Source: a virus
IMG/VR virus record: IMGVR_UViG_3300035698_005189
Location: 1 to 64,000 of that record
DNA: 64,000 nt
Reading direction: 5' to 3' (one strand)
Shown here: one piece after another, positions 1-42,080 of the stretch
Layout: each line of letters opens with the position of its first letter
Numbering within the stretch: the first letter of the stretch is position 1
Made by a program: the position numbers and the translations under genes
The notes under the pieces: generated by a model
Seen by the model: only the letters and a program-made list of their open reading frames with translations
What the model was told of the DNA's origin: nothing
Databases searched by the model: none

Positions 1-2254
1 CCCCATCGGTGTTGTAGCGGACCGTGTTCTGGATCAAGAGGCGGGCGTGCCTCGTGTTGAGCGCCTGCGCCAGGGTCTTCGCGTCTGCGAAGGTTGTGGC
101 GGCGGGGGCTCCGAGAACGACGTCACGCTCGGACCTACCTGCCCCAGCCATGTAGGCGGCGTGGGCGACGGCAGCCGCGTGAACGGCCGGGTCGGTGGTC
201 AGTGGGCAGACGGTGTTGACTCGCTCGCCCTTCAAGAGGTCCAGGGCGGCCTGCCAGTGCGCGAACATCGTCACGCCTTCGATCCCGCCGGTGAGGAACA
301 CCGGGCTGGTCGTGTTGGAGGGCGCACCCGTGGCAAGGGCGGCGGCGGCGGCTGTCACCAGCTCGCCTGTGTTGAGGACCTCCACGATGCGGTAGAGCAC
401 GGCGGCGAAGTCGAGTTGCACCGAGAGACAGGTGGCGGCGGCAGCCAGGTCCATGTCAGCGATCAGGAAGGCCGAGGCGTCACCAGCCTCGAGGGTGGCA
501 GCCCAACCGTCCAGAGCGGCGAGAACTTCGACGACGTCTCCCACGGTGTCGTAGTCAGCGATGGCCATGTCAGCGCAGGTGGCCGAGATGGTGAGCGTCC
601 GGGCCGGGTCGACGTGGCCGATGGCGAATCCGGTCACCTCACGCCAGGTGGACACGCCGGGGGCAGCGACTGCACCTGTGCAAGTGATCAGCTCAGTCTG
701 GGTGCTGAGGTCGGGGGCGACACCGACCGCCATGATCTTCGGGACACCGGCCCCGTCAAGAATGGCGGAGATGGTTGTCGAGTCAACCCGGAAGTTGTCG
801 ACGGCGATGAAGCCGGCGGACAAGCTGAGGGCAGCGACGGAGAACAACGCGACTGCGGGGTCGGCCCCGTAGACTGTCAGGGTGCCGGCGCAGGCGACGT
901 TGAGGACCACAGCGAAGACTTCACCCCAGGTCCCGACGGTGGCGACAGGGACAGCGCCGGTAAGCACTACCGACTCGACCTGAGCGATTCCGCCTACGGT
1001 GGTCCCGTAGATGGTGGCGATCTGGGTCAGGTCGGCCGCTCCTGCCGTCATGGTGACGACGTCTCCGGAGTCGAAGATGATGCCGGTAGTCGTGACCACG
1101 ACGGGCGCGGTGACGAGGCCAAGCCCGTAGGCGACAATGCTCTCCCAGGTGGTCGCGCTTGGAACGGGGGCCACACCGTTGAGGGTGAGCAGCTCGATCT
1201 GGGGTGCTCCGCCGAGGGCGGTGCCTATGACCAGCATCGTATCCACACAGGCACCGTCGGCTTCGACGGTGAACCCGCTGCCGTCGGAGGCCGATACCCC
1301 GAGTGAATCGGTGAGGACTTTCGCGCCTTGCTCCGTCTCTCCGATGGCGAAGGAGTAGTTGAGGGTCATCGCACCGACGTCGGAGACGGTGATGGGGGCC
1401 GCGCCGATGGCGGCGGACGAGAGGACCGCCCCGTAGACGTCGGTCCAGTCGATGGCCCCTACGACCGGCACAGCTGCGGTGAGGACCAGGGTCTCGGAGG
1501 TCGGGAGGCCAGTACCGTTGTCCACGCCGTAGAGGGTGATGCTCTGGAGGTCGCCTGCCCCACCTACGACGGAGGCCTTGGTTCCTGCAACCCAGACGCC
1601 TGCCTTGTCGGCCGACAGTCCGGGCTCATCGTGGGTGCCGATGTAGTCGCCACCCAGACCGAGACCCAGAGAGGCCTTGGCCAGCAGGGCGATGACGCCG
1701 GTCGCCGGGTCGATAGCCACGGTAGCTGCGGTGGGCCCGTTGACGCCCGGGGTGAACTCGGCGGAGAAGATGGGGTCGATGCCGACGTCGTCGTACTCTT
1801 CCTCGGTACCGCCGAGAACGACCGTGATGAGCTTCCCGCCGAGGGTGCCAGTGCCGACCTCCACGTTGATCTGGGTCGTGAAGAGGCCCCAGTCGGCCGA
1901 GGTCAGCTCCAGGGCGTTGCCGGCCCCGTTGGCGAGGGTGAGCAGCGACTGCGTGGATGGGTTGACCTTGACAAAGACGAGCGACTGCGCTCCGCCGGGG
2001 ATGTCGTCATCCTTGGACGGGTCGAACAGGAAGTTGCCGGCCTCGAGCAAGTCGCCCGAGCGGTAGGTCTGGCGGACACGTCCGGGAGCCGTCACGGGGG
2101 TAAGGACACCAGGGGCTCCGCCTTCGGCTTCGCCGAGGACCGCCACGATACCAGAAGCACCGAGGCCGATCCGGGACATGCCGGACGCGTCTACCTCGGA
2201 GTAGGAGCCGGGAACATGGGTGACCCGCCCGTTGAAGAAGATGCTCGTGGCCAT
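1..2254 (-). CDS. Contractile tail sheath protein (3' end runs off the window, >750 aa)
   Basis: Absent from the ORF track because it has no stop in the window. Manual translation from the ATG at 2254 gives MATSIFFNGRVTHVPGSYSEVDASGM...GIVAVLGEAEGG...LVFVKVNP, and near the window edge WQAALDLLKGERVNTVCPLTTDPAVHAAAVAHAAYM...ERDVVLG; both are typical sheath segments. It lies downstream of the neck genes. Confidence 0.9.
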   Translation of the reverse strand, partial: MATSIFFNGRVTHVPGSYSEVDASGMSRIGLGASGIVAVLGEAEGGAPGVLTPVTAPGRVRQTYRSGDLLEAGNFLFDPSKDDDIPGGAQSLVFVKVNPSTQSLLTLANGAGNALELTSADWGLFTTQINVEVGTGTLGGKLITVVLGGTEEEYDDVGIDPIFSAEFTPGVNGPTAATVAIDPATGVIALLAKASLGLGLGGDYIGTHDEPGLSADKAGVWVAGTKASVVGGAGDLQSITLYGVDNGTGLPTSETLVLTAAVPVVGAIDWTDVYGAVLSSAAIGAAPITVSDVGAMTLNYSFAIGETEQGAKVLTDSLGVSASDGSGFTVEADGACVDTMLVIGTALGGAPQIELLTLNGVAPVPSATTWESIVAYGLGLVTAPVVVTTTGIIFDSGDVVTMTAGAADLTQIATIYGTTVGGIAQVESVVLTGAVPVATVGTWGEVFAVVLNVACAGTLTVYGADPAVALFSVAALSLSAGFIAVDNFRVDSTTISAILDGAGVPKIMAVGVAPDLSTQTELITCTGAVAAPGVSTWREVTGFAIGHVDPARTLTISATCADMAIADYDTVGDVVEVLAALDGWAATLEAGDASAFLIADMDLAAAATCLSVQLDFAAVLYRIVEVLNTGELVTAAAAALATGAPSNTTSPVFLTGGIEGVTMFAHWQAALDLLKGERVNTVCPLTTDPAVHAAAVAHAAYMAGAGRSERDVVLGAPAATTFADAKTLAQALNTRHARLLIQNTVRYNTDG

Positions 2255-13042: not shown

Positions 13043-16000
13043 CTACCTCGGGGTCTGTGGGGTCTGTGGGGCGCTGAGACGTAACCCGGGGATGGCCTTG
13101 GCGAGGTCCAGCCTGGATGCCGAGGACACGTCCTCTGCATGTACGGTGTCGTAGTGGAGCGGGTCCCTGATGGCGACGCCGGCTTGGACGTCCCGCATCA
13201 CAGTCTCATTGACGACCTGGCGGGCGCGGCTGGTGGCGCGGACCGATACCTCGGTCAGCACTGGGTACTGGCGCTCGTAGCCGGCGTGGACCGTCTGATC
13301 CTTGGTGCCCTTCTGCTTGTCGCCCTTGATGGTGACCGTCTTCGGCATGACACACGACACACCGAATCGCGTCACGTTGACGAGATACTTCTTGGTCTTG
13401 AGGATGGCGCGGTCGGTTGGGCTGAGTTCGTCGATGACGGCTCGGGCGATATCCTGGTCAGTCACAACCACTCCGCCGGGGGCGGCCCGCATGGAGGCAC
13501 CGACGCGCACCCGGCGCTTGTCGATATAGCTCATGATCTCGTCGGCCCTGATAGCCAGGTAGATCGCAGTCGGATCAAGGGAGGACGTACCCTCGAGGAC
13601 GTACTCGGCCCCGGCGAAGGCGGCCCGGTCCTCTGGGCTCAGCTTGTCGATCGCTGCGGTGACGGCAGCCACGGCGCTGTCGGTGAGAGCCACCGGGTCG
13701 TCGTAGGTCCCGACAGCCGGGTCGGTGGCCGTCACGCCGCCGATGGGGAAGTCGATGACGTTACCCGACCCACCTGGGATCGGCGTGGTCTTCAGGTCCT
13801 CCAGGACGGCGGCTGCGTGCTCCGTCCCAAGGGTGGCGGCGACGTTCGCCTTGTTCGACAGGGCGGCCCACTCCTTGACCTGGGTGTCTGTGGGGTCGTT
13901 CGTGTCGCTGTGAACCATCATCGCGGCCGACTGGCTGGCGATGACCCGGCACGCGGCCTCGATGCTCTGCGTCGGCAGCTGCTTGCTGGCGTATTCGCCG
14001 AAGCTGAGGGTGAGGCCCTTCACCTCGCCCTGAGGGGCTCCACGCGGGGCAGGGCGGAAGGCATCGGGTTCCATCTCCTTGAGCTTGGTCACCGGGCCTG
14101 GGGTCGTGACGATATCCTCGACGTTGACCCACTTGTAGCCGGTGGCTCCGTCGGCCTCCTTGTACGACACTGGGACCACGGAGAACTTGGGGGACTCGCC
14201 AGGGGCGGCCTCGGTATCGAAGCGAGCCTCGGGTCGCTCCGGGTCGGGAGCGAGGTCGCGGTTCATGAACGCGACTCCGGTCGCACCGGCTGGGACACCC
14301 AGGGCTGAGACGATCCGGTCATCCTTGAGGGACTGACGGACTGCCGGCGGGAGCATACGAGCGCAGCGCGTGATCCGCTGCATCTCGGAGGCGGGGGAGC
14401 CGAGCGAGTCATACATGGCCAGCTCGGTGGCGTTGCCGAAGTTGAGGCCGACCTGGGCGGCGTCGGAGCACACAATGGCTTCGCAGTTGTTGAAGACGTC
14501 GCGCTTCTTCGGTGTCAGGGCCTCCGTGGTGGTGGCCTCCTTCTTGACGATCCCGGCGTACTCTTCCTTGAGGACCGCGTAGGCTTCCTTGCCGGCGGCG
14601 AAGGCGGCCTTGGCTTCCTTCTGCTCTTCGGGGGTCTTCTTATTGAGGTCGATCAGAAGGTCGTTCGGGTCACCAGCCAGGGCCATCTCGCGGAGGATAG
14701 CCGCCGATCGCTTGGTCCCGTAGAAGTACTTTTGAACCGCGTTGGGCCCGGACCCGTCGACCCAGAAGGCCTCCGGGGCATCGATCTTGAACTGCTGCCT
14801 GATCTTCTTTCGCGTGTCGTCGGTGAACTGGCTCATCTTGATGCCGGTTTCGTCTACCTCACCGGAGTAAGCGACCCACTTTCGGCCCCGCCCGAGCTTG
14901 TCCACGAAGACAGAGGTCTCCATGTCGCGCCCGAGCCTGTCCTTTACCTTCTTGAAGATCTCGGCGTTCAAGTCGCGGTTGCCTGTGTAGGTGGACCCGA
15001 TGTAGGTCACGAAGTAGCGACCGTTAGGGGAGGGTCCGGAGTCGGCTGGGTCGTAGTGCGGGCTACCCTCGATGGACTCGTTGACGTCCCTGAAGCCCAT
15101 CGTCCTCATGGTGGCCTCCATGGTACGACACCCGTCGAGGATGCCCCCAGCCATCATCACGAGTTGGCGGCGGCCCTCGGGCCCGTCGATGCCGCCTGGC
15201 CCATGGAACTGACCGACCCAGCCGGCCAGCTGCTCGGCCTTGGCGTTGCCGACCACCATCGCTACGTCGGCCTTGGCGCGCTCGTCACGGTGGCCGGGGT
15301 CGAAGATGCACGAGACGCGGGCCGCGACCTTCTTCTGAGCCACCCAGGTCGCTGCTCCGTCATCCTGGTTGACGACCACGCACTCCCCGACATGCTGCCC
15401 GGCCTCATGGGCCTCGGCGGTGGCTTCGGCGTCGTACTTGAACAGCGGGGGCTCCCACTCCTTCTTTTCAGTCGCTGACAGGCCACGGTCAGGCCTGACC
15501 CCGGCGTTGCCCTTGACGTCCACGATATCGCCTGGCTTGACCTTGTCGAAGCCACCGGCGCTCCTGGGCTTGCCGGTGTCCGGGTCGATGTCCTCGGGAC
15601 GGTAGAGAAGGTGGAGCGAGCCACGGGTATCGGACACCCAGCCCTCGCCCTCCATCACTGTGACGCCGCCGTAGGTTACGAAGTCGTGGTGGATGGTCTG
15701 GTCGGGTCGGATGCTCATGAGGCGCGACACCTCAGCTGGGTCGGACCCATCCTCGGTGGCGATCTGCTTGATGGTCTCGGGCATCCCCATGACGACCACG
15801 CGCTCAGACGGCTGGCCTTCGTCGTCGACCACGACGGCTACGCCCTTCTTGCCGATAAGCTCCCGGGCGCGGCGCTGGATCTCGATCGCCTTGTCGATGT
15901 CTGGGTCTGGCGGGGCGGGGGTGTCGGACCCGCGACAGCGGATACCGAGGGGACCCGCCTCCGGGTTCTGCACCTTGCGGGGCCAGCCATCGGCTCGCAT

Positions 16001-19000
16001 GGCCTTCAGTTGGGCCTTCGTGATCTTGGTACCAGCCACAGCACCGTAGTCGGCTCCGATGATATCGCGGAGGTGGAGCGTGTAGACGTCGGCCTCACCG
16101 GGACCACCCTCGAGGTCGGTGACCTCAGGCCAGCGACCAGCCCACTTGCCCCTGATCTTCTTGTCTGTGAACCAGTCAGGAGACCGAGTGTAGAAGTCGC
16201 CCTTGATGGCGTTGTCACCGGCGGACCGGCTGATCTGTACAAACTTCGAGTCGGACTGCGGCTTGTAGGCCGGGCAGTTGGAGATGGCCTTGGCTGCCAG
16301 GACGTTGCGCTTCGCGTCTCCGCTGAGGCCACGGAGTTCGTCTGCGCCGACCCAGCCACCCTCTGTGATCTTGTCCTTGTCGGCGTCGGTGAGCTTGGCC
16401 AGGTAGGCTGCGTACAGGATCGCCTGCGTGCCGGTCATATGGGCAAAGTGGGTCTCGTCCATGCGGGTAGCTGGGAGGGCCTTGCCCTTGACATCCTTCG
16501 TAGTGACGATGTGAGTCCAGCGACCGATGGTAGCGGCCACTTCCTCCCGCTTCTCGGGCTTCACGGAGATCTTCGGCCCAGCCGTTGCGGCCCCGGTGAG
16601 TCCGGGTACGACCGACTCTTCGAGGTACTCCTCGACGAAAGAATTGCGACTCATGCCGCCCCACTGCTCACCACGCGACAGGATCTTGACGTACTCGAGG
16701 AAGTCGGCGGGGCTGGTGGTCATCGGCGTGCCCGTCATGAGCACGACCATCTTCATCTTGTCGTTCCACCGGCGGAGGGCCTTGTTGCGGAGCGACGTGG
16801 AGGACTTGAGCCCGAGATGGGCTTCGTCTCCGACGAGGCCGTCGAAGCCAGCCGCGATGAGCTTATCTTCGTTGAGGGCCCAGTACTCGGGCCCGACTAC
16901 GACTGTGTCCTTACCGTAGGTCCCATTCTCGACACCCTTGAGGAAGGCGTCGGCTGGGATGTCGTTGGAGCCGGCCCCGACGACATGGCAGCCTACCGTG
17001 GTGAACGTATCGGAGGCTTCCCGCCACTGGTCCACGGTGTTGAGGGGAGCGACGATGATCACCTTCTTAGGTGCGTCGGGGTGGCGCTGGGTCGGATCGG
17101 CTGGGTCAAGGAGCGCCATCATCGTGCGAGCGCAAGTCAGGGCTGTTACGGTCTTGCCGGTCCCCATGAAGTGACCCAGTAGTCCTCGTCCCGCGTTGTC
17201 GAGGACGAGCTGGGTGCCGGCGGCCTGGTGGTCGGCCAGGGTGAAGGGCACCCCGTTCGGGAGGACGGCTCGCAGGCCTGTGGGGGCGAGGACGCCCGGG
17301 ATGCCGGCGGCCAGGACCTTGGGGTCGATATCGCGTAGCTCGAGGATGTGCTCCTTCTTAACGGCGCGGGCAGCGATCTCGTTCAGGTGGTCGGCCCTGT
17401 CGCGTAGGATGGCTTCGGCCTCTGAGGTAAGCGACAGACCGCCAACGGTCTCGCGGAGATTGGCGAACCCGGCGATAGACACGACCAGCGCGCTACCTGG
17501 CCCCTTGTGCTTATCAATCCGGTTGATGCCTGGCAGCTCCATAAGGTCGCCGTCATTCACACGACCCGACGCAGGGGTCAAGATCCGGAGTTCAGATGCG
17601 ACCACAGCGCCAGTCCGCTTGTCGACTTCGTCATGGCGGTAGATAAGTAGGCCGTCGGCCAGCCGCTCGGGGGTGGTCCCGGGAGCCACGGGGCGGACGG
17701 TCCGCCTGATCTCGTCCTGAGAGAACCGGACAAGACGACGCCCGGCGGCTCCGCCGCCTCCGACGCCGATGAAGATGTGTCGGTCAGGCCAGTCCTCAGC
17801 TGTCCAGTCCTCGACGTTCTCATCGTGGTTCTTGGTAGCAGGGTCGAGGATCGCAGTCTTCCAGTCGCGGTGAGCGGCGTCTTCTGGGTACCACCCAGGC
17901 AGTAGGCCGCCTCGCATGAGCTTCACTTCGGCCTTGGTGGGCTTGAAGGGTACAGGCGGCTCACGGTCGCTGCGCTGGAGTTCCTGGGGGTCGCCCTCGG
18001 CTGACGGTGGCATCCGGTCCCAGCCCGGGGGCGACGGCTTCTCGCCAGCCGGCTTGCCGGGCTCGATCCCGGTGTACTTGGCGATAACGTCCTTACCGCT
18101 CTTCCGGTCGAGTTCGGCTGGGGAGGCCTCGACGACGACGTTGTCGTATTTCTCGGGTACCCACTTCTCGCTGCGGACAGCAGGCTTCTTGATCCTGATC
18201 TTTTCGCCAACCACTGGCGCACGCGATACCTCGGTTCCGCCGAGCTTGACGACCGTCTCCCGGATGGTGTCATCGGGGACGGGGGTCGAGATGATGATAC
18301 CACCTTCGCCGTCGAGGATGGGGTCAGCGTCGTAGCCCTTGGCTATCAGGGCGGCGGCGAGTGCCGTGAGCCCGGCCCGGGTCTTGTCGTTCTTCTTGGG
18401 CTCCTTGGGGGTGCGATTCTTCGCCTTCTTGCCCGGCTTCTTGGGTACGACCAGCCGCAGGTTGGCGGGCTCGATCTTTACTCCGGTACCGCTGTAGGTG
18501 ACGTGGACGAGGGATTGGTCTTTCTTGATTCCCAGCTCATGGCCCATCGCCTCGAGGTCGGCCTTGATGCGATACGCCAGATCCTTCGACGCGGTCCGGT
18601 GCTCACCGGGGGTCGCTGGGACATGCTCGACGTCGGTGTGGCGGTAGCCGCCCACAATCCGGCCCTGACCCAGGAGGTCGTCGAGACGAGGCTCCTTCTT
18701 GCCGGTACGACGCTCCCACTCGGTACCGAGCAGTCGGGGCTGACCCCGCCCGTCAAACTCGACCTGGACGTGGAAAAGGTGACCGGTGTCGCCGCCGGTA
18801 GTATCGGTTGCGACCGAGATCCAGGCACGACGACGCTCCGAGGCGGCCTTTTTGCATAGATCCTGCAGGTGCTCGGGCGAGCGGACGTCTTCGAAGCCGC
18901 CGGGGGTCAGTAGCTCTCGCCACATCGGGGACTCGATGAAGAAGCGACCGTGACGACCGTCCTCCCCGGACGTATCGGCCAGGACGTCTATCGCAGTCTT

Positions 19001-21259: not shown

Positions 21260-23371
21260 TTACCTCGTGCCGGTTCCGTTCTTGAAGAGTGCGGTCATCA
21301 TACCAGACAACCCACCGCTGGGCTGCTTTGCGTTGACGTCGTGGACCGTCCCAGGGGCGCTAATAGCCAGCTCTGGATCTACTTCCGTGTGAGCGGTCAT
21401 CGCTCTAAACTGAGCAATCCGCTCCTTGTCGCGCTGCTGCATGTATGCTCGTCTGGTCGACTCGACCTGCGACGGCGTGCTCGTGCCGGCTACTTCGGCG
21501 TCGAGCTGGGCTCCTACGGCATCGGCTGTGCCAGCCCGGGAGGCGGCCTGGTAGACGTAGACTCGCTCGTCGGTGCCGAATCGCTCCTTGAGGTCACGGT
21601 GCGATGGGCCCGAGGCCTCGAACTCAGGCCAGACCTCTTCGGAGGCCACCCACTGGTCGATCCGGTCCCGGAACGACGCATCGCGTGCGGTGGCGACTCG
21701 CTTGAAGCTCTCGGTTGCTGTGTCGAGCGCAGCGGCGGCTGCCCTGCGCTTGGTCGGGCGGGACTTGCCCTCGGCGAGCCCCAGCGCCTCTGCGACGTCA
21801 TCGAGGGAGCCTGGCTCGCCGTCATTGTCGAGACCGAACCTGACCCGGAGGGCTGTGCGGTTGTCGCCGTCGGCCATGGCCCCGAGGACGTCGTCTACTT
21901 CCTCCCTGACGTGGAGGGCGGTGCCGGCTGTGTAGGCCCCAGCCCCGCTCATCGGTAGGATGGCTTCCTGGTGGATGAGCCACTCTTCATTTCCGACCAC
22001 CCGGTCGCCACGGACGAGGTCGCCCAGGGTGTGGACGAGTTGCACCTTGCCGGGGTGGTCCTTGCCGAGTTCGTCCCCGTTGGGGGTCTTGATCTTCCAG
22101 GGACCGTCGGGGACCTCTTCGGAGCCCTGGTCGATGGTCTTACCGTCGTCGGTGACGTAGTTGCCGAGGTCCTTGCCCTGGTAGACGTCCCGCTTCTTCA
22201 GTCGCCATTCCGTAGCGGTCTTCTCCGGGGTCGGCTCGATGCCGAGGCCCTTCTTGCGGGCTCTGGTCCTGGCAGCGATGAGCCCGCCGATTACCTTCAT
22301 CTTCCTGTCGGGGATGGTGATGCCGGCCCCGAGTTCGGTCCGGGCCGCCTGCAGGGCGTAGGTCATGGCGAAGTCTTTGGCGTGCCCCAGGAATGGGGAG
22401 CCTCCTCCGTACGTCGACAGGCCCATCGCGAATCCGTAGTGGGCTCCGCCCAGAAGCTCTTCGTACGCGGCGGATGGGCCGCCTCCGGGAGCTACGCGTG
22501 CGATACCGTACCGCTGAGCGATACGCTTGGCTGCCCCGTGGATGAGCGGACGAAACTCAGCGAGCGTGGCAGCCTGTTGCTGCTTGGGGACCGCTACGCC
22601 GTCCCGCCACTTGCCGAGCGAGTTCTTCACCCGCAGGACAGCGAAGCCGCTGTGCTCCATGTCGTGCAGGATGGTGCCGGGCTCTGCGCGTGACTCAGCG
22701 AAGGGCTTGAGGCGACGAGCGGCGTCGGACACCGGGCCCTCTTCGGATGGCTTTTTGGGAGGCTCCACATTTACCGGCCTGCGCTGAGGCGGGGGCGGAG
22801 GTGGCTGGTGGCGCTTAGGAGGCGGGGGCGCGTCCTCTGGGGGCTTGGGTGGCTTCGCCTTCGGCTTCGGCGACTCCCGGCGGAGGGGGACGAGAGTAGT
22901 CTCCCTGGCCAGGTGGTGGCTGCCGGGGCTGGTGACCGAGGTCACCCAGACACCGCCTTCGGGCGCGGCGGCGTGGTCCGGGGTGACCCGGTAGAGGCCC
23001 TGCCTGCCTCCGACCTCAACGACGTCGCCGGCCTTCACGTTCTCGTAGGTCCTGGTGGGGTCGCGTTCCCAGGGGTGGGCGTCGTGCTCACGGTGTCCTG
23101 GGTACCAGTACTCGTAGCCCTTAGAGCCCTTGGCCTTCTTACGATATCCGCCCTTCTTGCCGCCGGGGATGGCTGCCCAGCCAGCGCCGGGTGGGGCATG
23201 AATCGCCTTGCTCAGGTCGGCCTGAGATTCCTCAGCTGCGATCTCGTCCCAGGCCTCACGGAGGCCGGCGGGGACGGGGTACCACTCGACATCGCGGGTT
23301 CCGTCGTCAGCGAAGTCACCGTCAACCATCCGAGGGTCCACCGGGACCGGGAGGGCTGCTACCTTGGCCAT
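21260..23371 (-). CDS. Divergent sigma70-family factor with long N- and C-terminal extensions
   Basis: Region 2 'EFRPLIHGAAKR...YEELLGGAHYGF...FLGHAKDF', region 3 'ITIPDR...GIEPTPEKTA', region 4 'VDDVLGAM...RTALRVRFGL...SLDDVAEALGL'. Confidence 0.8.
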   Translation of the reverse strand: MAKVAALPVPVDPRMVDGDFADDGTRDVEWYPVPAGLREAWDEIAAEESQADLSKAIHAPPGAGWAAIPGGKKGGYRKKAKGSKGYEYWYPGHREHDAHPWERDPTRTYENVKAGDVVEVGGRQGLYRVTPDHAAAPEGGVWVTSVTSPGSHHLARETTLVPLRRESPKPKAKPPKPPEDAPPPPKRHQPPPPPPQRRPVNVEPPKKPSEEGPVSDAARRLKPFAESRAEPGTILHDMEHSGFAVLRVKNSLGKWRDGVAVPKQQQAATLAEFRPLIHGAAKRIAQRYGIARVAPGGGPSAAYEELLGGAHYGFAMGLSTYGGGSPFLGHAKDFAMTYALQAARTELGAGITIPDRKMKVIGGLIAARTRARKKGLGIEPTPEKTATEWRLKKRDVYQGKDLGNYVTDDGKTIDQGSEEVPDGPWKIKTPNGDELGKDHPGKVQLVHTLGDLVRGDRVVGNEEWLIHQEAILPMSGAGAYTAGTALHVREEVDDVLGAMADGDNRTALRVRFGLDNDGEPGSLDDVAEALGLAEGKSRPTKRRAAAAALDTATESFKRVATARDASFRDRIDQWVASEEVWPEFEASGPSHRDLKERFGTDERVYVYQAASRAGTADAVGAQLDAEVAGTSTPSQVESTRRAYMQQRDKERIAQFRAMTAHTEVDPELAISAPGTVHDVNAKQPSGGLSGMMTALFKNGTGTR

Positions 23372-34443: not shown

Positions 34444-34480
34444 GCCAAGGCCCGGGAGCGATGTGCTCCCGGGCCTTGGC
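34444..34480 (-). terminator. Intrinsic terminator-like hairpin (perfect 16-bp stem)
   Basis: gccaaggcccgggagc-gatgt-gctcccgggccttggc, followed on the minus strand by TCGTTCT. Confidence 0.7.
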
Positions 34481-34644: not shown

Positions 34645-34977
34645 TTAGGCGGCGTGGACGTTGATGATCTTGCGGCCCTTCACGTCGACGAGGTCGGTGA
34701 TGGCGTTGACACTGGCCAGCGCGAGGTGGTCACTGTCCTGGTCGGCGTCCACGAGGCCGATGGTCAGGAGGATGTTCATGGCCACGAAGTCTACGAGGTC
34801 GCACTCTTCTTCGACGATGACCCACTCACCGAAGACACCCGTCTCGAGGTCGGCGCGGCGTACGCGGATGTAGCCAGACCACTCGTCGTCTTTGTTGTCG
34901 TCGAAGCGCTCGATGAGGATGCGGGTGGCGTCAATTTCGAGGGTCTCGGTGGGCAGGGCGGCTGCGGTCTCTGGCAT
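34645..34977 (-). CDS. Acidic hypothetical protein (possibly extends to 34492)
   Basis: GGAG RBS; lies directly downstream of repeat copy 1. Confidence 0.65.
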   Translation of the reverse strand: MPETAAALPTETLEIDATRILIERFDDNKDDEWSGYIRVRRADLETGVFGEWVIVEEECDLVDFVAMNILLTIGLVDADQDSDHLALASVNAITDLVDVKGRKIINVHAA

Positions 34978-34980
34978 AAC

Positions 34981-35062
34981 GACTCCGTGATGGTTGGCGG
35001 CGGGACACTCCCGCCTTCACCAATATAGGGAGTGCGCCCAGCTACGCCGTGATCATTCGTCT
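34981..35062 (-). promoter_or_regulatory. Repeated promoter/leader element, copy 1
   Basis: 40-bp core 35023-35062 is 38/40 identical to 41274-41313; followed on the minus strand by a hairpin, CCAACC and a GGAG RBS. Confidence 0.75.
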
Positions 35063-35380
35063 CATGTTTTCTGCAGCGTGCCCAGCTATTCGTCTTAGGG
35101 CAGTCTCCAGGTCCATGTCCCCGGCCCGGACCTCGTCGGCCAGCACCTCGACCCAGGCATCCAGCGCACCCAGCTCCACGACAGGCGGGGGAGGGGGGAC
35201 GCCCAGCCAGAGGGCGAGGCCGTTCGCTACCTCTACGTCGTCGGTGGCCTTGGCGTAGGCGCGGAGTGCGACGACGGCAGCGGGGTCCCTGCCCGGCACC
35301 AGCACGAAGGCCTCCCGATCACCCAGCGGGCCCCGGTGGTGGTGGACTACGCTGAACTTACCAGCGAGCCAGCCGCTCAA
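35042..35380 (-). CDS. Hypothetical protein
   Basis: 'FVLVPGRDPAAVVALRAYA' is a common small phage protein pattern. Confidence 0.6.
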   Translation of the reverse strand: MSGWLAGKFSVVHHHRGPLGDREAFVLVPGRDPAAVVALRAYAKATDDVEVANGLALWLGVPPPPPVVELGALDAWVEVLADEVRAGDMDLETALRRIAGHAAENMRRMITA

Positions 35381-36018
35381 GGGAGGACCTGTACGAAGCC
35401 GGCTGCCTCAGCTGCAAAGAGGGCGCGGAGGATACCGGACTCGATGAGGTCCACGACCTCGGGCGGGTAGCCCAGCAGCGTGATCTGGGTGTTGGGTCCG
35501 ACGGGCGTCACGATCGGCGGGGGCACAATGAGGGCCTCTGCCGGGGTGTCGTCGGCCAGGACCGCCACAGGCTCCGACTTCGAGGCGGCCTTGTGGGTCG
35601 TCTGCTTGGGGAGCCACTCCTGACGACGGATGGACTCGGGGAGGCGGGGCGGGGGCCAGTTGGCTGGCGTGGTCTGGCCCCAGCACTCGGCCGGTGTCTC
35701 GTCGTAGGGACCGTAGGCGTTGAAGAGGGCGATCCAGCGTACGCGAAGCCGAGCTTCGCCCGTGCCCACGGTACCCCACCACGTCGCCCCATCCGACTTC
35801 CGCTTCCTGAACAGGCGGAAGCGCCCGGGCGACGCGTCGGCCCGGGTGATGGCGCTCCGAAGGGTCTTGTGCCAGCGGTCGGCTGGGACGCGGGCCAGGT
35901 AGCGCATCGCTTCGGTGGCTTCCTCGGTCGTGGCGTCGTCACCCCTGACTGGGAGGCCCCGTACCTCAGCGAAGGTCAGGGCGACGTAGCGATCGGTTTC
36001 TACCTTCTTGCGGGCCAT
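35377..36018 (-). CDS. Hypothetical protein
   Basis: Tiling, RBS GAGGT. Confidence 0.6.
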   Translation of the reverse strand: MARKKVETDRYVALTFAEVRGLPVRGDDATTEEATEAMRYLARVPADRWHKTLRSAITRADASPGRFRLFRKRKSDGATWWGTVGTGEARLRVRWIALFNAYGPYDETPAECWGQTTPANWPPPRLPESIRRQEWLPKQTTHKAASKSEPVAVLADDTPAEALIVPPPIVTPVGPNTQITLLGYPPEVVDLIESGILRALFAAEAAGFVQVLP

Positions 36019-36392
36019 GGCTCACCTCTGCAGTGTAGTCGCCGCTCAGCCGTCTGCTGGCTTCGTCATGTAGCCCCGGAGCATTTCCCGGGGGTCGGAT
36101 AGTACAGATCCGCCCTCGCCTGTGGTAACGGTCACGATCGGCACACCAAGGGCAGCACCGGCTCCGTGCAGCGCCGCGATCCCGTCGGGTGAGCCATTGC
36201 CGATCTCTGGAACGAGCACGGCTCGCAGTTTACCCTTTTCCGCAGCCCGTCGGCATAGCTCCCCAGCCTCGGAGGCTGTCGTCAAGGTACAAGGGCTCTC
36301 CATGACCCACCCTGTGCTGTCCTTAGACAGCACAGAGGCGATGAGGCCGATGCGGGCGGGGATGGCTCCAATCCAAAAGTCAGTAGGGAGCG

Positions 36393-36896
36393 TCATGGCT
36401 TCCTCGGCTTTCGACCGCGTGGCTTGCGGTCGTACGGGCGTTCCCGATGGGGGTGGACCTTCTCACGGCGGAGGCGGGGAGCAAGCTCGGCGTCGGCTGT
36501 GTCCCAGCATCGCTGGCCTGCCGGTGCCTTGCACGTCGGGCAGTCGTAGGCTGACCGGCGGGCGTCCCACTGGAGATCGTGGGCCTCGAGGTAGCCCAGA
36601 GCCTCTGCGATAGCGGAGTGTATGTCCCGCACCACGAGGCTGCTGGCTGTGACGATCATCGGCTTCCACGGGGCCTCTGTGGTCACGACCACTGGAACCC
36701 CCGTCGCGTAGGCAGCAGCCGCAAGGCACTCGCCGTAGGCGTTCGTCGGGCCGACCAGGATCACCTGGGCTGCGCGCATGGCCAGGATCTGGTCGTCGAG
36801 GGTTGGCTCGCAGCAGGGGCGGCCCATATACCCGGCCAGCTCGAGTGCCTCGTGGGCTAAGTCAGGCACGTTGCCGATGTCGAGGAAGTGAGCCAT
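36393..36896 (-). CDS. Nucleoside deoxyribosyltransferase-like domain + C-terminal zinc finger
   Basis: 'AMRAAQVILV...AAAYATGVPVVV'; 'CPTCKAPAGQRC...HRER'. Confidence 0.4.
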   Translation of the reverse strand: MAHFLDIGNVPDLAHEALELAGYMGRPCCEPTLDDQILAMRAAQVILVGPTNAYGECLAAAAYATGVPVVVTTEAPWKPMIVTASSLVVRDIHSAIAEALGYLEAHDLQWDARRSAYDCPTCKAPAGQRCWDTADAELAPRLRREKVHPHRERPYDRKPRGRKPRKP

Positions 36897-37465
36897 TATC
36901 GTCTCCCGAGATACTTGAGCATCCGCGTCTGCAGGTCGACGGGGCGGAGGGTCGGCTCCGGGTGGCCGCAGACAGGGCAGCGACGGTCAGCGATACGGCC
37001 CGAGGGGGTGGAGTCGCTCTCGTCAGCGCGGGGGTAGGGGTGGGCTGGGCGGCTGCATACCGCGCAACGGGGGCCGAGAGCCTCCCGCTTTGGCTGTGCC
37101 GCCTTCTGGGGCGTAGCGGCTCCCGCCTGGGTGAAGACTCGGGCACCGTCCCAGGTCGCGGGGAGGCCCTGCGGGATATCGGTCGCAGCTGGGACTACTG
37201 CCACGACGACGTCGGCCTTGGCTGGCTTCGTGGCCTCCAGGATAGCGACCTTCCAGTCATCCTCGGTGAACGGGTATGAGACGGAGACGACGCGCCCCCG
37301 CGTAGCCAGCTCGAGGCCGACATCGGTGGGCGTCACGGAGGCTGTCGGGTCCTCCACCTCGTCGCACACGATGAGGGTCAGGGCGGCCTCGGCATCCTCG
37401 TGGTCCGACGGCTCTCCGCCGACCAGCCAGGCGAAGACCTCCAGGTAGTCGGTAATTGTCCTCAT
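36896..37465 (-). CDS. Hypothetical protein with C-terminal CxxC...CxxC
   Basis: CAVC, CPVC. Confidence 0.55.
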   Translation of the reverse strand: MRTITDYLEVFAWLVGGEPSDHEDAEAALTLIVCDEVEDPTASVTPTDVGLELATRGRVVSVSYPFTEDDWKVAILEATKPAKADVVVAVVPAATDIPQGLPATWDGARVFTQAGAATPQKAAQPKREALGPRCAVCSRPAHPYPRADESDSTPSGRIADRRCPVCGHPEPTLRPVDLQTRMLKYLGRR

Positions 37466-38166
37466 GATCGTCTCCCAAGAAGGTGCTCAATATCCATGAT
37501 GCTGAGGCCTGAGCCTCTGAGTCGGGCTTCCGTGACCATACCAGACACCTGCAGCTCACGATTACCGAGGGTGACGTCCCACGCGAGGCCGACGTTGTGC
37601 CTAATCACGCACAGGGCGATAGTCGGGCGGCTGGCCGGTAGTCGCAGGCTGCGCTCAACGGACGGATGACTCGCACCGACCAGGGTGGCGTACACCCGGA
37701 TGGCCCGCAGGGCGTCTTCGTCTGTGAGCGAGACCAGGCGAACCGGGCGTGCGGCTGTGGGCTTCTCAGCGAGCTTCGCCTCCAGCTCCCGCTCCTTCTT
37801 ACGAAAGGCAGCCATGACGACCTTCTGCTGGCTGTCCACCCGCGAGCGGTCCCGGGCGGCCTTGTCGAAGGCCTTGTTGGCGGCGCGCAGGGCGGTCCGG
37901 GAGTCCTCCAGCTCAACCTCGGTCTCGCGCCAGCCCTTGGCTACGTCGGCTGTGCGCTTCTTCTGGTCGTGTAGTTCGGTCCGGAGGGCTGTGACGGCAG
38001 CCTCCCTGGTGGCGTCTGCGCTCGGAGGGAAGTCGGGAACATCCGTGTCGTCAGGGACCGGGTCCTCGTCGGCCCGCGGTGCTCGGTTCCTGCGGCGGGC
38101 CTCCATAAAGGCATCGTCGCCAGCGGTGGACCAGGGACGGGGGCCCGGGCGTGGAGGGTTGGTCAT
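37462..38166 (-). CDS. Coiled-coil hypothetical protein
   Basis: Heptad-rich centre; tiling. Confidence 0.55.
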   Translation of the reverse strand: MTNPPRPGPRPWSTAGDDAFMEARRRNRAPRADEDPVPDDTDVPDFPPSADATREAAVTALRTELHDQKKRTADVAKGWRETEVELEDSRTALRAANKAFDKAARDRSRVDSQQKVVMAAFRKKERELEAKLAEKPTAARPVRLVSLTDEDALRAIRVYATLVGASHPSVERSLRLPASRPTIALCVIRHNVGLAWDVTLGNRELQVSGMVTEARLRGSGLSIMDIEHLLGRRS

Positions 38167-39108
38167 GCGATCATCCCGGCCGCGATCATCCTGGCCACGG
38201 CGTAGGTGGTGTCGTCTTTCCAGGCAGCCCCGGAGGGCGCAAGGAGTTCGGGGTTAGGGAGGGCGGGGACGAGGTCGGACGCGTACCACCACTGGGTGAA
38301 CGGCCGGCCGTTGGGGCTGACCAGGGGCCGGTGCTTTACGAGGTACTCCGTCTCGCCCGGGCCTATCGGGTGGCGGACACTGACGACCACTCCCGCCCGG
38401 GAATCGCCCAGGCCAGGTGCGTGGCCATCCCGACCGGCAAAGCGACGAATCCGCATGAGCTGAGACGCGGTCCCCTCTGTCGTGGCCTCTTCCCACAGGG
38501 CGGCCCGGAGGCAGACTTTCTCGCCTTCTACGAACTTGCACATAGCGGAACGATCACCCACAGGACACCTCCTGTCCGGTTAGTCGCTGGTAGACGCCCT
38601 GGGCTGGTCGTCACCGACGGCGTTTACGAGGCCTCATGCAGGACATATCGGCTACCGTGTTGCCCCGCTCGGACTTGCCGGGGACGTTGATCCCGAGGTC
38701 GGCGCAGTGCTCCCGTGCCCACCAGCCCTGAACGAGTAGGCAGCTGGGGCCGTCGAAGCCGATGATGACCGAGCGGGGGACGAAGACGGCCTTCCCGTCG
38801 AGCAGGCGCATCTTGCGCGACTTGACTCGTTCCTCGAGGATAGGGGTATCGGGGTCGAGTTGAACTCTCATCGCATCCTTCCATCTGTGCAGATCCCGGG
38901 AGAGGCGCAGAGGCGTCGTGTCGTCAGGCAGCAGTCCCCGTTGACGTAGTAGACACACTCGGTCGCTGGGGCGCCGACGGGCTCGGCTTCAACGAGAACG
39001 CGCCCTACCTCGCAGATCTCGGTGAGATCGCAGGGTAAGGCGCGCAGGGCGGACCGGGAGCAGGCGCAGAGCCCGTTCGGTCGCCGATAGAGGCAGGCAG
39101 CCGTCATG

Positions 39109-39780
39109 TCAGCAGCCCACGACGTAAGCGATGAGCCACGCAGCGAGGGCCAGACAAGTGAAGACCAGGGCGGCTCCCGCTGACTGGAGCCGGGACTCGG
39201 GGCTGCGGGGGTGGATAGGCTGGGGGTCGTCGTCAGGTCCCTCGGTCGGCCAGACTTCGCACAGGTCCACGACCTCCGGAGGGATGCGGTCGGGTACTGG
39301 GAGGTCGTCGGGACGCCCGACTCCCTTGTAGTTGTAGTTCCCATGCCGCACAGCCGAGTCGCAGGCTGCGTGGGCGGCGTTGAAGGCGGGGTGCTCGCGC
39401 TCGGCCTCAGCGCAGGGGGTGCAGATCTCGGACCCGTCGAAGAAGGAGCCGGTCGTGGTACGGGCGGCGTTGCGACAGGTCCCGCAGGTGCCGGTGTAGT
39501 CCATCGGCTCGATGGCGGGGGCGTTGAGCCCGAGCATCCAGGCTGCGGAGAGATGAGTCATGGTCTCGGGTCGGCCGCCTTGGGGATTCCAGACCACGAG
39601 GCCCGGGTGCTCCGGGTCGTAGACCAGGAGCCCGGTGAGGCCGCCAAGCCGTACCACGATGCGGTCGGAACAGTCGGGGTCCACAGCCAGGCTGACGGCG
39701 CGGAGGGCCATACCTTCGTAGACGGTCGAGCAGCCAGAGGACTGGACACGGAAGGAGTCGGCGAGGGAGCGTCGGTTCAT
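39109..39780 (-). CDS. Hypothetical protein with Zn-finger and C-terminal TM
   Basis: CGTC...CTPC; hydrophobic C-terminus. Confidence 0.55.
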   Translation of the reverse strand: MNRRSLADSFRVQSSGCSTVYEGMALRAVSLAVDPDCSDRIVVRLGGLTGLLVYDPEHPGLVVWNPQGGRPETMTHLSAAWMLGLNAPAIEPMDYTGTCGTCRNAARTTTGSFFDGSEICTPCAEAEREHPAFNAAHAACDSAVRHGNYNYKGVGRPDDLPVPDRIPPEVVDLCEVWPTEGPDDDPQPIHPRSPESRLQSAGAALVFTCLALAAWLIAYVVGC

Positions 39781-39794
39781 GCGGGATCTCCTGT

Positions 39795-39818
39795 GCCCCC
39801 TCCGTCGTCGGAGGGGGC
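39795..39818. other. Intergenic 10-bp hairpin
   Basis: gccccctccg-tcgt-cggagggggc. Confidence 0.45.
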
Positions 39819-39834
39819 GGGGGTGTAGTCGTGG

Positions 39835-40323
39835 TTAGTACTCGCCGCTGTGGTGGCCGTACTCGTCGGGGTCTTCGATGCTGCAGCCCATCGTGTCGTT
39901 GTAGGCAGCGCAGCCGCCACCCATCCCCGCCATCATGGCGTTCTCGCGCCGGTCGTTGGCGTCGTCGATGCTGTCCTGCTCGTCATCGGTGAGCCAGAAG
40001 CCGAAGTCGGACCCGTCTCCCTCGTGGGTGCCGAAGCGGATGCCCTCGATCTCGTAGGTCCGTAGGATATCGTCGATGAGGTCGGACACCGTCTCCAGGT
40101 CCCACTCGGTATCGGTGGCCTTGGAGCGCTCCACGCCGCCGAGGATGGCCTGGCACGCGGCCTGGAAGCCGACGAGGTAGGGGGTGTCGGCCTTCGGGGT
40201 CCAGGTGCAGGCTTCGAGGAGGTTGGTGGCTCCCGTGACGTAGGCAGCCAGGACGGCCGCTTGGCGAAGGTCACCGTGCGACACGGTACCGATGATGTTG
40301 AGGGTAGATCCGTGGGTGGTCAT
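39835..40323 (-). CDS. Acidic early-type hypothetical protein
   Basis: 'FGTHEGDGSDFGFW' motif; start MTTHG after GGAG. Confidence 0.6.
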   Translation of the reverse strand: MTTHGSTLNIIGTVSHGDLRQAAVLAAYVTGATNLLEACTWTPKADTPYLVGFQAACQAILGGVERSKATDTEWDLETVSDLIDDILRTYEIEGIRFGTHEGDGSDFGFWLTDDEQDSIDDANDRRENAMMAGMGGGCAAYNDTMGCSIEDPDEYGHHSGEY

Positions 40324-40324
40324 G

Positions 40325-40669
40325 TCAGGCTCCAGGCGCGGCTGGTGGGGTGTTTCGGAGGTCTTCGGGGAGGATGGCGCGGTAGGCGTCACGCGCCGAC
40401 TCGTCGGGGCGGAGGTTGGCGGCTTCGCGGAGGGAGGGGATGTGGTCCCGTAGGTACGAAGCGACGGTAGCCGCCTCGATGAGCTTCAGCGACTCCGAAG
40501 ACTGCGGCGCGTAGGCCCGACCCGTCTGCTCGGCCTGCTCGGCGGCCTTGCTCAGGCCGTCGGCCAGGTTGCGGGCGCAGTTGATGAAGTCGTTAACGGC
40601 GCGGGTGTGTGTCCGCTCGGCGGAGATGACTGCCTGCAGTAGGTAGGCTCGGGACTGAAAGGCGTTCAT
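40325..40669 (-). CDS. Hypothetical protein
   Basis: Tiling. Confidence 0.55.
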   Translation of the reverse strand: MNAFQSRAYLLQAVISAERTHTRAVNDFINCARNLADGLSKAAEQAEQTGRAYAPQSSESLKLIEAATVASYLRDHIPSLREAANLRPDESARDAYRAILPEDLRNTPPAAPGA

Positions 40670-40670
40670 G

Positions 40671-40988
40671 TCAGGTTCCTTGAGAGTCGTAGGGGCGGGG
40701 GAAGTTGATGGCGTCTGCGGACCACGCGACGAGCTGGGCAGCCGTCATGCGGGGACCGTCAAAGGACAGGCGGAGGTCAGGGCCGACGTCGAGCTTGAAG
40801 GTGAAGTCGCTGGTGATTCCGCCGACGTTGCCCCGGGGCGGACCCCAGCGGAGGATGTGGACGGCTCCGTTGATCGTGCCCCGGGCGTACTCGCGACCCT
40901 CGGTGTCGTACGCCATGACCTCACGCTCCCGACCGCAGCGGTAGTGGCGGCCGACGGACGGGGAGACGAGGTGGTTGGTGGTGCCCAT
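40671..40988 (-). CDS. Hypothetical protein
   Basis: Tiling. Confidence 0.5.
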   Translation of the reverse strand: MGTTNHLVSPSVGRHYRCGREREVMAYDTEGREYARGTINGAVHILRWGPPRGNVGGITSDFTFKLDVGPDLRLSFDGPRMTAAQLVAWSADAINFPRPYDSQGT

Positions 40989-41227
40989 TAGACTGCCTGG
41001 GGGTTGACGGTGGTTTCGAGGGTGATCTTGTGGCTGGTCACGGAGGCCTCACCGGCTGCGGCGGGGCGAGCGTCCTGCAGTGCGATGGCTGCCTCGCAGT
41101 GCCCGATGAGGGTTCCGAGGTAGACGTCGGTGAAGACGAAGGCACCGTCGCCGTGGTCGTTGATGTCTTCAGAGACGGAGAGGCACTCGGCGGCGAGGGC
41201 GCGCATGGCGGCAGTGAGGTTGGACAC
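40988..41227 (-). CDS. Hypothetical protein (GTG start after repeat copy 2)
   Basis: GGAG-tcacc-GTG at 41227, in frame with track ORF 40988..41338. Confidence 0.55.
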   Translation of the reverse strand: MSNLTAAMRALAAECLSVSEDINDHGDGAFVFTDVYLGTLIGHCEAAIALQDARPAAAGEASVTSHKITLETTVNPQAV

Positions 41228-41230
41228 GGT

Positions 41231-41313
41231 GACTCCAGTCGGTTGGTGACGAGGAGAGTCCTCGTCTTCAACGATATAGGGAGTGCGCCAGGCTACGCCG
41301 TGATCATTCGTCT
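41231..41313 (-). promoter_or_regulatory. Repeated promoter/leader element, copy 2
   Basis: See copy 1. Confidence 0.75.
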
Positions 41314-42080
41314 TCGATAAGTCCCCGGACACCCCCACCTACGGCCTTTTTATCGCTGTGCAGGGCCAGGCTCCTTCCGGCCTCGTACGCGTCTTGATTC
41401 CACCCGTCTCCGGAGCCGAACCCACGACCTGAACCGGCGCTGAAGGTGTAGTTTGAGTCGACCCACTCGCTGACCTTTGCGCGGCGGTCGAGGACGAGGG
41501 CGTAGTCTTCAGCGTGGTCGCGCTTGACTTCACGAGTCAGCTCCGTGAACTTCGACTCGAGGCCAACCACCGCTGTCTCACGGTACTCGTGGCTGGCGTC
41601 CCGTCTACGACTGGGATCAAAGAACCGCCCAGCGCGGAGGGTGTCTACTTCGAGGTCGAATACATACGAACGAGCCAGGGTATCGATCTGCGCGGCACAG
41701 ATCCCGTACAGCTCCTTAGCCATATGGGTATCGGACTGGTGGCCGTGAAACTTCCAGATCGGGGTCCCTTCGTGGTACGACGCCCGTAGGCCGACGTAGT
41801 CCGATACCGCCTGGGCGAGGGAACGCTTCCACCCTGACGTAGTGCGATACCGCTTCCTGCGCTCTTCTCGCGTGGACAGACACAGCCCGTCAAACCTAAG
41901 GGTCAGGCTGATCAGCGGGTCGGTGGAGAGATCCAACGAGTCGACGTCGTGCTGCGATACCGCGTGCTCCAGCATCATCTCCATGGCCCGGCGGGCAGCC
42001 TGCTCCGCTTCGTTACCCTCGGAGCCGCCAGCGAGTGCCTGCAGCTTCTTGATCCGAGTCAATACCTTCTGCGACTTCAT
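41304..42080 (-). CDS. DUF2786 domain-containing protein
   Basis: 'KVLTRIKKLQALA...NEAEQAARRAMEMMLEH'. Confidence 0.8.
   Translation of the reverse strand: MKSQKVLTRIKKLQALAGGSEGNEAEQAARRAMEMMLEHAVSQHDVDSLDLSTDPLISLTLRFDGLCLSTREERRKRYRTTSGWKRSLAQAVSDYVGLRASYHEGTPIWKFHGHQSDTHMAKELYGICAAQIDTLARSYVFDLEVDTLRAGRFFDPSRRRDASHEYRETAVVGLESKFTELTREVKRDHAEDYALVLDRRAKVSEWVDSNYTFSAGSGRGFGSGDGWNQDAYEAGRSLALHSDKKAVGGGVRGLIEDE

Follow-up and report, generated by a model that had tools for sequence, protein, structure and literature searches.

The promoters read by phage-encoded sigma factors and phage RNA polymerases (RNAPs) are typically low-copy, well-conserved repeats, which come to light when intergenic regions are aligned pairwise (PMC4331800). 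The gp36 promoter motif of phage phiEco32 (TAATGTATA) belongs here, Salmonella phage 7-11 likewise has phage-sigma promoters, and in phage Xp10 two 43-bp repeats serve as phage-RNAP promoters (PMC4331800). Another described arrangement is that of the PeSLs (promoter-early stem-loops) of the T4-type phages RB49 and phi1, which combine consensus sigma-70 promoters and AT-rich upstream regions with stem-loops that are terminators; they occur about 50 times per genome, and their recombination products have been demonstrated (Arbiol et al. 2010; PMC2839356). Here, we examine a repeated element in the virus record IMGVR_UViG_3300035698_005189, a 98,094-bp viral contig of an uncultured salt-lake phage, whose first 64,000 nucleotides are the stretch analyzed (the window); positions beyond it are given as genome positions. 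The element has two copies in the window, c1 and c2, and a third one, c3, at 77 kb, all of them on the coding (minus) strand. Its closest known kind are the promoters of phage-encoded sigma factors, and we regard it as a predicted, lineage-specific promoter. That it is a phage-specific bipartite promoter of a type departing from the host consensus is the reading we favor, and we hold it to be reasonably probable.

The locus shares several features with phiEco32 and 7-11, namely a few conserved coding-strand copies in short intergenic spaces, which may overlap upstream gene ends, the lack of a host -35/-10 consensus, and an encoded divergent protein of the sigma-70 family. On the other hand, it shows two blocks with a free spacer instead of a single 9-bp extended -10-like box, has three copies only, carries its sigma gene in the head module, and is a promoter by prediction. 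With the PeSLs it has in common the order of stop codon, promoter, stem-loop, Shine-Dalgarno (SD) sequence and start codon, the position ahead of ORFans in variable DNA, and direct repeats that could recombine. It differs from them in its three copies, the missing sigma-70 consensus, a hairpin without U-tract, and the absence of recombination joints in four low-coverage metagenome runs.

The copies c1 (35023-35062) and c2 (41274-41313) agree at 38 of 40 positions, exactly as the original prediction had it, and their likeness reaches further, to 46 of 51 positions (35012-35062 versus 41263-41313) with a longest exact run of 22 bp; the 22-mer half of this repeat found no match in 100 shuffles. 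The element had been described as twice repeated, a count that has to be raised by one: the whole-genome motif scan proposed for finding further copies uncovered c3 at genome 77176-77215. Its core is the same 14-mer as in c1 and c2 (CGCACTCCCTATAT), preceded at equal distance by TGATCgCGG in place of TGATCaCGG. The exact 14-mer is present three times in the genome, always on the coding strand, while no other site comes closer than three mismatches; shuffled genomes contain on average 0.08 14-mers with at least three occurrences. In an all-against-all comparison of the intergenic regions it is, apart from the overlap of the contig ends, the sole common motif.

Comparison of the three copies reveals a bipartite signal, composed of block 1, (ACGA n)TGATC(A/G)CGG, a free spacer of 10 bp, and block 2, the core. 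Copy c3 agrees with c1 and c2 at all 14 positions of block 2 and at eight of nine in block 1 (with ACGA shifted by 1 nt), as opposed to three of ten in the spacer. The block centers lie about 21 bp apart, i.e., two helical turns. The -10-like box reads TATATT in c1 and TATATC in c2 and c3. Past TATA the bases are T or C and then variable (TGG, CGT, and CTA in c1-c3), and the three free bases after TATAT are followed by TGAAG (c1 and c2) or CGAGA (c3).

Each copy begins at or within the upstream stop codon, 45-85 nt ahead of an SD sequence and a start. The stop codon TAG (35042-44) of a 112-aa open reading frame (ORF) lies inside c1 and the TGA (41304-06) of a DUF7168/DUF2786 protein inside c2, whereas c3 directly follows the TAA of the primase gene. 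The two ORF ends overlapped by c1 and c2 are unrelated and in different frames, as had been claimed, which supports the view that conservation acts at the DNA level. The similarity of c1 and c2 ends at the start codons, and the proteins behind them are unrelated. Upstream of the copies lies GC-rich coding DNA. No sigma-70-type promoter was called at any of the three copies, nor was a TTGACA-like hexamer present at 16-18 bp; no intrinsic terminator was called there either. A TATAT box lacking a canonical -35 had been pointed out before, and the copies look promoter-like while lying off the host sigma-70 consensus.

Several other candidates were considered and set aside. A fourth copy at 82985-82998 (9/14 matches) was rejected as it lies inside the ORF of a 151-aa HTH_36 protein, and the coding-strand TATAT sites at 55752 and 58008 do not share the core. 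A 16-mer search of viral contigs returned three unrelated matches, attributed to chance. The composite pattern was found in no viral contig, and in metagenome contigs it was found in the same phage only (99.8-99.9% identical); in four metagenome DNA runs (low coverage) the elements showed no variants. With GATC at an unremarkable frequency (482 observed versus 565 Markov-expected), the idea that TGATC serves as a methylation switch was dropped. As a side observation, the whole genome shows a strand bias for TATAT (12 on the coding versus 2 on the other strand) and CTATAT (6 versus 0).

Relatives of the terminase gene TerL number in the hundreds, on contigs of about 100 kb. We compared 80 loci of such relatives, a set without the long contigs of the closest ones (TerL 69-79% identity). 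The exact core is absent from these 80 loci. One of them (L015; TerL 61%, 56% GC) has two copies of the two-block pattern, which were independently flagged as repeat family D4 and read GATCAC, a free spacer of 15 nt (N15), and CACTACATA(TA)G. Their register of block, spacer and block is that of c1-c3, with GATCAC at equal distance. Copy a overlaps an upstream ORF end, and copy b is followed by AGTGTAAGG (versus TGGTGAAGG in our phage), a CAACC leader, AGGAGG and ATG. Throughout 1.48 Mb of related DNA, the two-block pattern occurs at five coding-strand sites only (c1-c3 and the two of L015), next to two reverse-strand matches without the ATA box; a relaxed search added nothing except noise. The surroundings correspond as well, since in both phages the element stands between the family of the 112-aa ORF and the conserved clamp-TerL gene pair. 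Behind copy b come three ORFans, and next a textbook intrinsic terminator immediately ahead of the clamp gene. The roughly 220 nt between copies a and b (L015:6557-6773) look noncoding, with stops in all frames and a lower GC content; copy a may drive a small noncoding RNA.

Two near misses in other loci were not used. The CACTCC-AG-CATAG upstream of the clamp gene in L006 follows a pattern set post hoc and without strand enrichment, and ACTCCTATATT in L017 lies inside the coding start of a zinc-ribbon protein.

Downstream of the blocks, the predicted order of TGAA(G), hairpin, CCAACC, GGAGTC and start codon is indeed present at c1 and c2 (Table 1). Both hairpins are where they had been placed and have the same shape; their sequences, described as different, turn out to be homologous in a hand alignment, with one double change from G-C to A-T and one inserted A-T pair. 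Such compensatory changes argue that the stem is under selection. The hairpin of c3 is unrelated, having a 5-nt loop and lying farther downstream. The leader hairpins are followed by CCAACC and have no T-runs, which sets them apart from intrinsic terminators, and extended folds of the element are no better than those of shuffled sequences (z -1.5 and -1.0). A known 5'-terminal stem-loop of this sort is the mRNA stabilizer of the E. coli ompA leader type, which our leaders resemble in that the hairpin lies 0-3 nt from the predicted 5' end of the transcript and the stem is kept by compensatory changes.

CCAACC and GGAGTC had been listed as parts of the element. They are not special to it: the coding strand has 13 cases of CCAACC with GGAG in the next 25 nt, against 2 on the opposite strand, about 12 starts in this phage have GGAGTC ahead of them, and relatives likewise use CAACC..GGAGAC. 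CCAACC ahead of the SD sequence and GGAGTC ahead of the start codon are thus generic features of the ribosome sites of this phage.

Table 1. Positions of the element, its surroundings and the candidate sigma gene in the window
Feature	Position	Strand	Remarks
c1 block 2 (core), CGCACTCCCTATAT	35023..35036	-	One of three exact genome copies; the region's sole AT-rich box lies at its end
c1 block 1 (upstream), ACGAATGATCACGG	35047..35060	-	Identical in c2; c3 keeps ACGA(+1 nt)TGATCgCGG
c2 block 2 (core)	41274..41287	-	
c2 block 1 (upstream)	41298..41311	-	
Upstream 112-aa ORF	35042..35380	-	Last 7 codons in c1; homologues in L005, L006 and L015
Upstream DUF7168/DUF2786 gene	41304..42080	-	Stop codon in c2
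c1 leader hairpin	34999..35015	-	7-bp stem, 3-nt loop, -12.2 kcal/mol, leader z -2.2; 5' edge = predicted transcript start
c2 leader hairpin	41248..41266	-	8-bp stem, 3-nt loop, -12.8 kcal/mol
c1 initiation region	34975..34997	-	CCAACC 34992-97, GGAGTC 34981-86, ATG 34975-77
c2 initiation region	41225..41246	-	CCAACC 41241-46, GGAGTC 41231-36, GTG 41225-27
First gene behind c1	34645..34977	-	110 aa, isoelectric point (pI) 4.15, ORFan
First gene behind c2	40988..41227	-	79 aa, pI 4.44, ORFan; no paralogue of the 110-aa protein
Strongest hairpin in the genome	34444..34480	-	16-bp stem, -39 kcal/mol; between the 110-aa gene and the clamp gene
Hairpin 1.46 kb past c2	39795..39818	-	10-bp stem; possible end of the c2 unit
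Phage sigma-70-family gene	21260..23371	-	703 aa; candidate reader

If the element is a promoter, transcription would start about 7 nt past TATAT, i.e., near 35015, 41266 and genome 77168. A short stem-loop would then form the very 5' end of the RNA, probably shielding it, with the generic CCAACC-GGAG site behind, and each copy would open a short unit of lineage-specific genes. The most likely reader would be the host core RNAP carrying the divergent sigma of the phage. This protein is a candidate reader because it has both DNA-reading regions and the element is a two-block, -35/-10-like signal of a nonstandard kind. That the phage sigma does read the element is a tentative proposal, to which we give less credence than to the promoter itself. 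For the element as a whole, a nonstandard promoter of the phage's own, a known phage strategy met here in a new lineage, is the most likely account.

The existence of a sigma-like phage protein, part of the original prediction, stands on firmer ground now. A Pfam scan of the 703-aa protein gave no match; in a phmmer search against PDB sequences its top three matches were sigma region 4 of SigB/SigA (E 0.009), and a profile of 25 homologues matched regions 2 and 4 of SigA, RpoD and RpoS with E-values down to 1e-11. By these profile matches the phage encodes a true but divergent sigma-70-family protein. Both the WW melting dyad (region 2.3) and the recognition helix (region 4.2) are replaced in the profile consensus of this alignment, from which we infer an altered promoter specificity. 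The N-terminal domain of the family (profile positions 19-144) matches the C-terminal part of a phage portal protein of solved structure (PDB 9b41 chain L, "gp19 Portal"; E 7e-22) and more weakly an inorganic pyrophosphatase.

A further-reaching idea takes the three boxes as immediate-early promoters that serve a capsid-borne sigma. The injected sigma would capture the host core RNAP and fire three short units of partly very acidic takeover proteins, an N4-like way of bringing one's own transcription, with a sigma in place of a polymerase. We consider this quite unlikely. A sigma-dependent c1 would in any case need a first supply of sigma, either as virion cargo or by read-through, given that its gene is located 12 kb past c1.

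Other conceivable readers were sought in the genome. No T7-like RNAP domain (PF00940) was matched, in a scan to which control genomes were equally silent, and no RNAP family of PHROG or Pfam was found among about 60 proteins scanned. No gene like that of a virion RNAP (vRNAP) was seen, and the 2635-aa protein is of the SNF2 helicase type. Separately, the stretch at genome 82857-83597 (L088:2358-3098) encodes a 151-aa HTH_36 protein (82857-83312, 26.5 bits) and a 94-aa neighbor, where the tail genes meet the helicase-DnaB block. Both are probable DNA-binding proteins and candidate regulators or replication initiators.

Critically speaking, a number of points weigh against a phage promoter read by the phage sigma. 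In c2 and c3 the box reads TATATC, without the T that normally closes a -10 hexamer, and the register of the -35/-10 equivalents is ambiguous, with a spacer of 18-22 depending on the bases counted. Recent duplication or gene conversion, instead of constraint, could account for part of the near-identity between c1 and c2 over 40 bp. The element was found in one other lineage only and not in L005, L006, L007 or L009-L011. The leader hairpin of L015 is weak, so the hairpin is not the defining part. The sigma gene sits in the head module, 12 kb away from c1, and among more distant complete relatives the N-terminal domain is joined to other large proteins without the sigma part. As for a co-occurrence of element and sigma, the contig of L015 ends before the place where a sigma gene would lie, and the viral contigs anchored on sigma (L089-L098) end short of the relevant regions.

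Phage promoters that depend on an activator classically have a -10-like box without a -35, as in the late promoters of Mu and P2, which are bound by the C protein and Ogr, respectively. Along these lines, the host housekeeping sigma would use the weak -10 TATAT, while block 1 (at about -45 to -32), and maybe block 2, would be bound by an activator from phage or host, with the HTH_36 winged-helix protein (genome 82857-83312) as a candidate. It speaks for this explanation that such a protein is encoded, that TATATT of c1 fits TAnnnT, and that three copies compare with the four late promoters of Mu and P2. However, the nine bases upstream of TATAT are invariant in c1-c3 and CACTNC is kept in L015, in a zone that activators seldom read, and the last -10 position is a C in c2 and c3. 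We deem it plausible, though unlikely.

The signal might also act at the level of read-through RNA. In one version, the RNA would be cut for processing at UAUAU beside the stem-loop, an AU-rich stretch next to a hairpin being reminiscent of RNase E-type sites; in the other, ACUCC of the core would pair with the SD sequence GGAGU as a switch, restricting translation to RNA that is processed or starts locally. As no terminator precedes any of the copies, read-through RNA would contain the element. The centroid fold of c2 does pair ACUCC with the SD sequence, the core of c1 pairs with a hairpin arm, and the compensatory changes indicate a selected stem. Yet a complementarity of 5 nt to a generic SD sequence is weak evidence, the extended folds do not stand out from shuffles, there is no Rfam match, and L015 has no strong hairpin. 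Moreover, RNA structure gives no account of a free 10-nt spacer and of a block 1 kept 35-45 nt upstream in two lineages. We find this explanation distinctly improbable.

The original prediction itself offered an alternative, namely recombination repeats bounding an exchangeable cassette of 6.25 kb, and this gained no direct support. As scars of recombination or duplication, the copies would be cassette ends shuffled in the manner of PeSLs and have no regulatory role of their own. Indeed, c1 and c2 are direct repeats flanking 6.25 kb of variable, ORFan-rich DNA, an SbcD-like nuclease is encoded, and PeSLs recombine in this way (PMC2839356). Nevertheless, no joint skipping the interval was seen in four metagenome runs of low coverage, and c2 has its normal context in two further samples. 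A scar would neither keep two blocks while losing the spacer between them nor recur at 77 kb or in L015 in the same register, on the same strand and at the same position ahead of a start. The presence of c3 and of the L015 homologue points instead to a sequence-specific function, which makes the scar explanation very improbable; recombination between the copies is possible as a by-product.

Promoters of the T7 class are conserved contiguously from -17 to +6, initiating purines included, and the early promoter of N4 is itself a hairpin with conserved bases (5-7 bp stem, 3-nt loop) that is read by a giant vRNAP. The element resembles the Xp10/T7 class in being a long, near-identical, low-copy repeat with an invariant contiguous 14-mer, in which CGACTCACTATA agrees with the T7 sequence from -12 to -1 (GCACTCCCTATA) at 10 of 12 positions. 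With N4 it shares the short stems of c1 and c2 (7-8 bp) with their 3-nt loops and the idea of a factor that the virion delivers for use at a few dedicated promoters, and TerL is distantly related to that of N4-like phages. A promoter of a T7-like single-subunit or N4-like virion RNAP is nonetheless exceedingly improbable, as the scans described above found no gene for either polymerase (the domain test being a weak one, given its silent controls), the phage is a myovirus, the bases past TATA are variable and not G, a second block lies 20 bp upstream, and the hairpin sequence is free, differing in L015 and, in place and loop, in c3.

Turning to the genes behind the predicted promoter, the first ones after c1 and c2 are small and acidic, as the original prediction had it (Table 1), and none of the first genes has a homologue in 90 related loci; the ESM Atlas held nothing usable for the 110-aa protein. 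Among the 13 ORFs between c2 and c1, one has a homologue. The c1 unit would consist of the 110-aa protein, the c2 unit of proteins of 79, 105, 114 and 185 aa, and the c3 unit of two ORFs, one of about 270 aa in which the frame changes and one of 300 aa. Behind c3, the SD sequence and ATG open 24 codons only (genome 77017-77091; L084:13017-13091), after which a startless, coding-like frame runs for about 46 codons into a 204-aa ORF at 76271-76885. The frame change, -1/+2 near GCACCCAGGTCAAG, is either an assembly indel or a programmed shift.

A strong hairpin follows each copy, at a distance of 0.54 kb (c1), 1.46 kb (c2) and 1.76 kb (c3, at genome 75392-75413). The coincidence across three copies has a p-value of about 0.004-0.02, with a threshold picked post hoc. 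Each unit thus probably ends at a strong, GC-rich hairpin. In L005 and L015, the place of the 34444-34480 hairpin is taken by intrinsic terminators with an isolated AT box behind them (TGATATAGG and GCTATATACAGG), suggesting that the unit boundary is conserved and that a second promoter precedes the clamp-TerL pair. Under this short-unit model, the units would resemble small, separately driven accessory gene sets; the alternative is read-through into the large modules.

As to the genome as a whole, the contig ends share an exact overlap of 127 bp (window 1-127 versus genome 97968-98094), and a tail-sheath frame of 936 codons crosses the junction. The map is therefore circular, and what looks like a terminal repeat is an overlap of the assembly. 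Nearly all genes lie on one strand, and sheath and baseplate genes mark the phage as a myovirus. In the direction of the coding strand, c1 is followed by the 110-aa gene, the hairpin, clamp, TerL, portal, the head genes with the sigma gene, and the tail genes across the junction. Then come helicases, DnaB and primase; c3, two ORFans, a hairpin, AAA ATPase, CobT/VWA, DNA polymerase, SSB, SbcD, methyltransferases and endolysin; and lastly c2 and small ORFans, before c1 is reached again. GenBank phages gave no DNA match and only distant TerL matches, single-protein searches of IMG/VR gave no match (the clamp protein retrieving itself only), species-representative genomes held no TerL relative, and Rfam (gathering score) and tRNA scans of the whole genome returned nothing.

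Other repeats came to light in the related loci. L009 (2300-6530) and L010 (3000-7250) carry five to six copies of an intergenic cassette that precedes small genes, in the order CTGACGAG, hairpin, GAAACG, hairpin, CTTGGGAAGC, CAACC, and GGAGACAATCATG; some of the second hairpins contain a copy of the SD sequence. L007 (390-6850) has five to seven copies of terminator, hairpin, TGACGACAATCG and TGCATGGAGGCAC ahead of small genes, and an 84-nt coding repeat (GGPYIGKRGGKWADPQHKIPWK-like) occurs four times in proteins downstream of its TerL gene (13639-16734).

Were the element a processing site or a host promoter that depends on an activator, it would rank as an ordinary regulatory element. As a phage-specific promoter, it would mark where three small units begin, whose unknown genes are good candidates for host takeover. 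It offers a concrete DNA target for a divergent phage sigma, with five natural sites in two lineages, and if the sigma reads these sites, a new promoter specificity would be defined. If, in addition, the sigma is delivered as virion cargo, the element would outline how transcription is taken over in a widespread, uncultured family of phages of about 100 kb.

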